From assembly GCF_054482595.1 (NCBI RefSeq), contig NZ_CM137008.1: 64,000 bases of DNA, one strand, 5' to 3'. Positions within the stretch are counted from its first letter, which is position 1; every line of letters starts with the position of its first letter. The position numbers were made by a program, and so were the translations under genes. Positions 2,450-3,958 of this stretch are shown piece by piece. The notes below the pieces were generated by a model that made no database searches, was not told where the DNA came from, and saw nothing but the letters and a program-made list of their open reading frames with translations.

Positions 2450-3958
2450 CTTTATGGATCAACGGTGACTGGGTAACGGGCCAGGGCGCACAGCGCGTGA
2501 AGCGTAATCCGGTATCTGGCGAGGTGTTATGGCAAGGCAATGATGCCGATGCCGCTCAGGTCGGGCAGGCTTGTCGCGCAGCCCGTGCGGCGTTTCCGCG
2601 CTGGGCGCGGCTCTCATTTGCTGAACGTCAGGCCGTTGTCGAACGCTTTGCCGGATTGCTGGAAAGGAATAAAGGCGAATTAACCGCAATCATTGCCCGA
2701 GAAACCGGCAAGCCGCGCTGGGAAGCGGCAACCGAAGTGACGGCGATGATCAATAAAATCGCGATATCAATTAAGGCGTATCACGTTCGTACCGGCGAGC
2801 AGCGTAGTGAAATGCCGGACGGCGCGGCGAGCCTGCGACATCGCCCGCACGGCGTGTTGGCGGTGTTTGGGCCGTATAATTTCCCTGGTCATTTGCCGAA
2901 CGGACATATCGTTCCGGCATTGCTGGCAGGTAACACCATTATCTTTAAACCCAGCGAACTGACACCGTGGAGTGGCGAAGCGGTAATGCGTTTATGGCAG
3001 CAGGCTGGCTTGCCGCCGGGCGTGCTGAACCTGGTGCAGGGCGGGCGTGAAACGGGTCAGGCGCTGAGTGCGCTGGAGGATCTCGACGGTTTGCTGTTTA
3101 CCGGCAGCGCCAATACCGGCTACCAGTTGCATCGCCAGCTCTCCGGTCAGCCGGAGAAAATTCTTGCCCTTGAGATGGGTGGTAATAATCCGCTAATTAT
3201 CGATGAGGTGGCGGATATTGATGCCGCTGTCCATCTGACCATTCAGTCGGCGTTTGTCACAGCCGGGCAACGCTGCACCTGCGCCCGCCGTTTATTGCTG
3301 AAAAGTGGAGCGCAGGGCGATGCATTTCTTGCCCGCCTGGTTGCCGTCAGCCAAAGGTTAACGCCGGGCAACTGGGACGACGAACCGCAGCCGTTTATTG
3401 GCGGGCTAATTTCTGAACAGGCCGCACAGCAGGTGGTTACTGCCTGGCAGGTACTGGAAGCGATGGGCGGACGAACCCTGCTTGCGCCGCGCTTATTACA
3501 AGCAGGGACATCGTTGCTGACGCCGGGGATCATTGAAATGACAGGCGTTGCTGACGCCGGGGATCATTGAAATGACAGGCGTTGCTGGCGTACCAGATGA
3601 AGAGGTGTTCGGGCCGCTATTGCGCGTCTGGCGTTATGACACCTTCGATGAGGCGATCAGGATGGCTAATAACACTCGCTTTGGCCTCTCTTGTGGGCTG
3701 GTTTCCCCCGAGCGGGAAAAATTCGAACAACTGTTGCTGGAGGCGCGGGCGGGGATTGTTAACTGGAACAAACCGCTTACCGGCGCTGCCAGTACCGCGC
3801 CATTCGGCGGCATTGGTGCATCCGGTAACCATCGCCCCAGCGCCTGGTATGCCGCAGATTACTGCGCATGGCCTATGGCGAGCCTGGAGTCGGACTCGTT
3901 AACTTTGCCCGCAACGCTTAACCCCGGACTGGATTTTTCCGATGAGGTGGTGCGATGA
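2446..3958 (+). pseudogene. astD: succinylglutamate-semialdehyde dehydrogenase astD, frameshifted by 34-bp tandem duplication
   Basis: ATG 2446 ([10 protein letters not shown]) overlaps astA stop; frame runs to TGA 3568-3570, then ORF 3548..3958 resumes the aldehyde dehydrogenase sequence in another frame; duplicated unit 3516-3549 / 3550-3583. Confidence 0.85.

Follow-up and report, generated by a model that had tools for sequence, protein, structure and literature searches.

How does an Escherichia coli chromosome come to carry an astD gene that reads as two consecutive fragments, when its closest relatives encode a single enzyme? The locus raises the questions of whether the break is real, how it arose, what it does to arginine catabolism and how it relates to a second lesion in the same operon. 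The break lies in a 64-kb stretch of DNA (the window), in which a 34-bp segment of astD stands twice in immediate succession. Our answer, held with high confidence, is that replication slippage would have produced the duplication, that astD would have lost its function as a result, and that a nonsense mutation in astC came afterwards.

The window is a piece of E. coli chromosome that runs from astCADBE through spy, ves, cho, nadE, osmE, the chb genes and katE onward to ydiN. The operon genes astC, astA, astD, astB and astE follow one another on the + strand. Each is matched by the NCBIfam model for that gene, and TUM18780, the nearest complete genome, carries the same annotation. Intact reading frames are found for astA (1415-2449, 344 aa; 734 bits on the NF007770 equivalog model, cutoff 521; also annotated in TUM18780), astB (3955-5298, 447 aa; TIGR03241, 804.8 bits against 538.3) and astE (5291-6259, 322 aa; TIGR03242, 482.1 bits against 305.65). 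Overlapping ATGA junctions link astA to astD and astD to astB. The first gene, astC (198-1418), carries an amber codon (Q193*, TAG at 774-776) where TUM18780 has CAG at codon 193, and the 192-aa N-terminal fragment that remains covers no more of NF009047/TIGR03246 than positions 1-192. In the AST (arginine succinyltransferase) pathway, AstC catalyses the step directly preceding that of AstD, the succinylglutamate-semialdehyde dehydrogenase. The astC operon has been described, as has Lys252, the PLP-binding residue of AstC (PMC3590144). That residue lies downstream of the Q193* stop, so the amber truncates AstC before it. As astC heads the operon, polarity from the amber probably lowers expression of the downstream genes as well.

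The structure of the repeat is unambiguous. Direct comparison of the 34-nt units at 3516-3549 and 3550-3583 shows them to be identical and head-to-tail, and Tandem Repeats Finder reports 3512-3587 with a period of 34, 2.2 copies, 100% matches, 0 indels and a score of 152. Both bear out an earlier note on this DNA, which had placed a perfect 34-bp duplication at 3516-3583. This is by far the top tandem repeat of the 64 kb, the remaining three rows scoring 50-63, and the 34-nt unit has no further occurrence elsewhere within the window. The unit boundaries given here follow the register of that note; against TUM18780, an alignment that places the extra copy at 3554-3587 is just as good. Perfect identity at period 34 covers 76 bp (3512-3587), equal to two 34-bp units plus a third copy of an 8-bp repeat. 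By our arithmetic, the probability that 42 consecutive positions agree by chance at a fixed offset is about 4^-42 per position. The 8-bp repeat, CGTTGCTG, occurs in three copies on the + strand, at 3512-3519, 3546-3553 and 3580-3587. Microhomology at the boundaries had been noted before as gttgctg; its presence stands, whereas its length is 8 bp rather than 7 bp. Extended to CGTTGCTG(A/G)CG, it matches at 10/11 positions. The duplication creates a novel 40-base junction, TTGAAATGACAGGCGTTGCTGACGCCGGGGATCATTGAAA. As a separate feature of the same gene, a perfect 9-bp inverted repeat, CCCTGCTTG / CAAGCAGGG, lies at 3476-3484 / 3499-3507 with a 14-nt spacer, directly upstream of the duplicated segment.

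The consequence for the reading frame follows from the length of the unit. Since 34 equals 33 + 1, the frame shifts after residue 368 and meets a stop six codons on. The N-terminal ORF (2446-3570, + strand) encodes 374 aa, namely native residues 1-368 followed by ADAGDH, and ends at a premature TGA (3568-3570) that arises where copy 2 is read out of frame (ATT GAA as ..T TGA A..). The frame from 3548 to 3958 translates the native C-terminus through to the normal astD stop. Within it, the C-terminal ORF (3572-3958, + strand) encodes 128 aa, from native Met365 to Arg492, and its stop overlaps the astB start (ATGA). Gene callers predict the same 128-aa product in other carriers of the duplication. 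Deleting one copy in silico yields a single 492-aa ORF. Translation thus agrees with the earlier description on the frameshift into TGA, the continuation of the C-terminus to 3958 and the restored length.

The identity of the disrupted gene as astD, likewise proposed before, is secured by the restored protein and by its location within astCADBE. The repaired 492-aa sequence scores 857.7 bits against the TIGR03240 equivalog model (cutoff 579.3) over profile positions 1-484, and it alone qualifies as an equivalog. The 374-aa product covers profile positions 1-371 of 484, and the 128-aa product covers positions 363-484 at 221 bits, below the cutoff. The nearest solved structures are themselves AstD proteins (3JU8, 5U0L and 4KNA). 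The restored window sequence is a full-length member of this family in the same operon gene order, and the astD of TUM18780 is 100% identical to it at the DNA level except for the insertion. The family encodes one full-length enzyme, whereas the window encodes 374 aa and 128 aa separately and no full-length product.

The 374-aa product keeps the EMGG (243-246) and QRCTC (275-279) motifs and lacks EEVFGP (374-379), PFGG (441-444) and the C-terminal segment. In aldehyde dehydrogenases, the lost elements have roles in cofactor positioning and dimer formation, for which reason the 374-aa product alone should be inactive. With the main product lacking the last quarter of the aldehyde dehydrogenase fold after the shift at residue 368, the AST pathway would most likely be blocked at the conversion of succinylglutamate semialdehyde to succinylglutamate. 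The duplication allele therefore probably makes astD a loss-of-function pseudogene that is lineage-specific and potentially revertible.

Two fragments in tandem could nonetheless retain activity. Ribosomes that terminate at UGA 3568-3570 might start again at AUG 3572, and the two products, of 374 aa and 128 aa, might then assemble into an active AstD. A +1 slip on GGG-G (3558-3561) might otherwise supply a low level of full-length AstD with an 11-aa insertion. Several features are compatible with such a rescue. The stop and the native Met365 ATG are 1 nt apart (cat TGA a ATG), a weak Shine-Dalgarno-like GGGGA, close in strength to that of astC (-6.5 kcal/mol), lies 8 nt upstream of ATG 3572, the break falls between conserved blocks just before EEVFGP, the two fragments jointly hold every native residue, and reinitiation would keep the ATGA coupling to astB. 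The same close spacing of UGA and AUG (1 nt) is found in termination-reinitiation systems of bacterial operons, and the ast operon has ATGA junctions of its own. The arrangement in the window differs, however, in being an accident of duplication within a gene. An unusually good Shine-Dalgarno sequence at ATG 3572 was considered and rejected: its value of -5.7 kcal/mol is unexceptional and mid-range among ATG triplets of any frame in the astD span. Moreover, no aldehyde dehydrogenase made in two pieces is known to us, and the sub-lineage of the window later lost astC, so the pathway was apparently not maintained. As for the slip, frameshifting in prfB is stimulated by an adjacent stop and a strong Shine-Dalgarno sequence, and the GGG-G site has neither. 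A programmed frameshift of the prfB kind was also discarded as not conserved, every other E. coli astD read or annotated being a single ORF. Rescue by reinitiation or slippage of the ribosome is, on balance, very unlikely. It is likewise highly doubtful that astD has become a two-cistron gene whose halves reassemble as a working or regulatable split enzyme with astB coupling kept, or that the allele serves as a revertible off-switch for arginine catabolism. Loss of function remains the preferred reading of the two fragments.

A different objection is that the second copy is an artefact of sequencing or assembly and that the genome is truly single-copy. Short repeats are indeed collapsed or expanded in some assemblies, and one Logan contig (L013) begins exactly at the C-terminal ORF, at the repeat. 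Nevertheless, a perfect 34-bp insertion is atypical as a sequencing error, and to our knowledge it is the typical error of no sequencing platform. Exactly this junction recurs in at least eight contigs of other isolate and metagenome assemblies, which belong to three accession series and represent different assemblers and sample types. It was read in GCA_958334905.1 (contigs L003 and L009), in GCA_029471405.1 (L006, identical to the window), in GCA_905397305.1 (L016) and in five ENA SPAdes metagenome contigs (L004, L005, L011, L014 and L015). An artefact has next to no chance of accounting for this distribution, and the duplication is real, as the earlier note had held.

Comparison with close relatives gives the direction of the change. 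Only six sites differ between TUM18780 and the window over 64 kb, and TUM18780 has one copy of the unit. Besides the 34-bp insertion in astD, the differences comprise a C-to-T change at 774 (astC Q193*), a 3-bp in-frame deletion (AAC) at 11212 that removes Thr72 of chbC (the chitobiose PTS IIC subunit), tcyP H96Y at 20790, selO D11N at 40793 and a synonymous selO site at 42109. With ETEC6335 as the outgroup, tcyP H96Y and selO D11N arose on the side of the window, and the synonymous selO change on that of TUM18780. Five further genomes that share the AstD allele are all single-copy, and all have C at 774.

Wider searches place the allele among rare variants. The 40-base junction has no match in 5,426 RefSeq complete E. 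coli genomes, in a search where single-copy alleles cannot seed because the longest stretch they share with the query (24 bases) is shorter than the 28-base word. Each of the best 30 listed matches to positions 3300-3800 (a 501-base query) spans 466-467 bases, which corresponds to one copy. Scanning of JGI metagenomes likewise gave no exact match to the 40 bases. In this comparison of astD across other E. coli, a check suggested beforehand, the closest relatives and every other genome read were single-copy. Given one copy in relatives and no junction in complete genomes, the duplication is derived and rare. In the assembly collection, the intact 492-aa allele is found in 1,313 blocks and the truncated 374-aa product in 14-16 contigs, one of them of 5.2 Mb; the 128-aa C-terminal product occurs in 23 contigs, not all of which have the duplication. 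The large number of blocks with the intact allele indicates that the duplication marks a putative small sub-clone of a common lineage. The ast allele itself is unusually divergent: over 3300-3800, only 14 of 5,423 complete genomes reach an identity to it of 99% or more, and 5,299 fall in the 90-95% band. This pattern suggests that the window carries an old or recombinant ast haplotype.

The single-copy alleles also point to the mechanism. On three backgrounds (L001, L007 and L008), they contain CGTTGCTG twice, exactly 34 bp apart, so the direct repeat at both ends of the unit preceded the duplication. This ancestral arrangement upholds the slipped-strand signature that the first description of the locus had proposed. 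The insertion is exactly 34 bases, all copied from adjoining sequence, and no foreign or mobile-element remnant is present at the junction. Together with the perfect head-to-tail copies and the single copy in the closest relatives, these features are what slipped-strand mispairing would leave. During replication, the template would have misaligned between the two pre-existing repeats in astD. A nascent strand ending in the second repeat would have mispaired with the first, and 34 nt would have been copied again. The expected product, three octamers at 34-nt spacing with no filler, matches the observed sequence.

Slipped-strand mispairing is a long-described process (Levinson and Gutman 1987, as cited in PMC6054270), and in the bacterial pseudogenes surveyed in that work (PMC6054270), about one insertion in two creates direct repeats. 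Slipped-strand duplications in E. coli and in bacterial pseudogenes have the same perfect head-to-tail copies without filler, the same ancestral repeat and the same three spaced short repeats, and the window allele differs from them in nothing of kind. Other origins were considered and set aside. Hairpin-driven slippage was rejected, since the fold of the ancestral 66-nt segment (-10.7 kcal/mol, z = -1.3) does not stand out. An IS excision footprint was rejected as well, since the insert consists purely of local sequence and is longer than a target-site duplication would be; those of known IS elements are much shorter than 34 bp. Nothing here is unfamiliar: the family of the gene, its operon, the mechanism of mutation and the way in which decay continued are well known. 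The finding opens no new biology, and the duplication would be an ordinary replication-slippage mutation.

The order of the two lesions in the operon can be read from other carriers of the duplication. L003 and L009 differ from the window at one site over 7.5 kb and at two over 14 kb, respectively. Their assembly has the duplication together with intact astC and unaltered chbC, and L011 has the duplication without the chbC deletion. Because carriers on the same background have the duplication and an intact astC, the duplication came first and astC Q193* arose later, in the sub-lineage that comprises the window and L006. The chbC Thr72 deletion is specific to the sub-lineage of the window, being absent from L009, L011 and TUM18780, and is also later. 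The duplication would thus have become fixed in a putative small E. coli clone before the second, independent knockout. Further decay after the function of an operon has been lost would follow the usual pattern.

The astC mutation itself has a recognizable sequence context. Codon 193 changed from CAG to TAG, and the ancestral context ATC-CAG-GGG includes the Dcm site CCAGG. The change from ATCCAGGGG (ancestral) to ATCTAGGGG is a C-to-T transition at the inner cytosine of CCWGG. This cytosine is a classical deamination hotspot, and Coulondre and Miller reportedly found that deamination of Dcm 5-methylcytosine at such hotspots yields amber codons in lacI. L007 and L008, two unrelated backgrounds in which astD is intact, carry the same astC Q193*; they have about 210-220 differences from the window over 5.8 kb, or approximately 3.7% of operon sites. 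The mutation is therefore found on at least three backgrounds in total, but none of 5,359 RefSeq complete E. coli genomes has it. As in lacI, the inner C of CCAGG is affected, CAG becomes TAG, and the change recurs on unrelated backgrounds, which suggests a deamination hotspot. This likeness concerns the neighbouring astC rather than the duplication, and it is one of sequence context. Neither of the two further derived SNPs, tcyP H96Y and selO D11N, falls on a Dcm site. Since the astC amber is a hotspot change that is also seen with intact astD, its presence beside the duplication would be only weak evidence for relaxed selection on the operon.

Two knockouts in one operon could instead reflect selection for loss of the AST pathway. 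Under such selection, the astC amber might be compensatory, halting the formation of reactive succinylglutamate semialdehyde and silencing the operon by polarity. The lesions are independent, AstC acts directly before AstD in the pathway, Q193* recurs on at least three backgrounds, and all five changes derived in the window over 64 kb alter proteins. However, the Dcm hotspot explains the recurrence without selection, and the amber also occurs where astD is intact. The derived SNPs number only three, all of them G:C to A:T, which is too few to test and gives no statistical power. The clone with the duplication is tiny, with 14-16 contigs against 1,313 blocks of the wild-type allele, and neither lesion is found in complete genomes (the duplication in 0/5,426, the astC amber in 0/5,359). 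Adaptive ast loss was not found in the literature searched. Selected loss is accordingly an unlikely explanation, and we prefer that of slippage followed by a hotspot mutation in an operon that may already have lost its function.

The duplicated state may still be reversible. In E. coli, longer tandem homology deletes precisely far more often, a dependence on repeat length that Lovett and colleagues are said to have established. Now that the tandem homology is perfect over 42 bp, one copy should be lost precisely far more often than an 8-bp repeat would give rise to the duplication, and the knockout would be revertible in principle. The same property could be taken to indicate a contingency locus that toggles between one and two copies. 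Yet just two states were seen, with the two-copy state confined to one background; copy number among close relatives is one or two, and two in a single clone only. A 34-nt unit in two copies is unlike known contingency repeats. Revertants, recognizable as a single-copy astD with the astC amber on the background of the window, numbered 0 in the 28 contigs read, which came from 24 of the 1,313 blocks with the intact allele. We give the toggling locus hardly any credence and retain the view of a slippage mutation that would be capable of precise reversion.

For annotation, astD should be flagged as a pseudogene, as should astC in the window strain, and with both genes in this state, use of arginine via the AST pathway is predicted to be lost in this strain. 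For strain typing, the 40-base junction provides a clean marker of the clone: none of the 5,426 complete genomes has it, yet it can be recovered from isolate and metagenome assemblies. The allele (astD codons 357-368) was not found described in the literature searched, and nothing specific on astD or ast-operon pseudogenes was found there. The locus offers a natural example of a putative microhomology-mediated duplication alongside its single-copy ancestor. It also illustrates ordered decay of an operon, in which the duplication preceded the amber at a presumed Dcm hotspot, and a knockout that should be precisely revertible.

Further lesions and variants were seen in other assemblies. In ERR499270 (L010) and ERR499284 (L012), astD is split into 357 + 128 aa; these were set aside as a separate -1 lesion in noisy assemblies and not the duplication. 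In GCA_900449805.1 (L019), a 1-bp indel splits astC into 102 aa and 317 aa. The lesions in these three contigs may be sequencing errors, because the same contigs show other split genes. Among the metagenome carriers of the junction, L004, L011, L014 and L015 have 7-10 extra SNPs in astB, astE and the spy-ves interval (window equivalents 4011-7191). These are partly clustered (for example, at 5830/5839/5857 and 7158-7191), and none is present in the isolate relatives. Recombination, an older duplication clade or a chimeric metagenome consensus could account for them.
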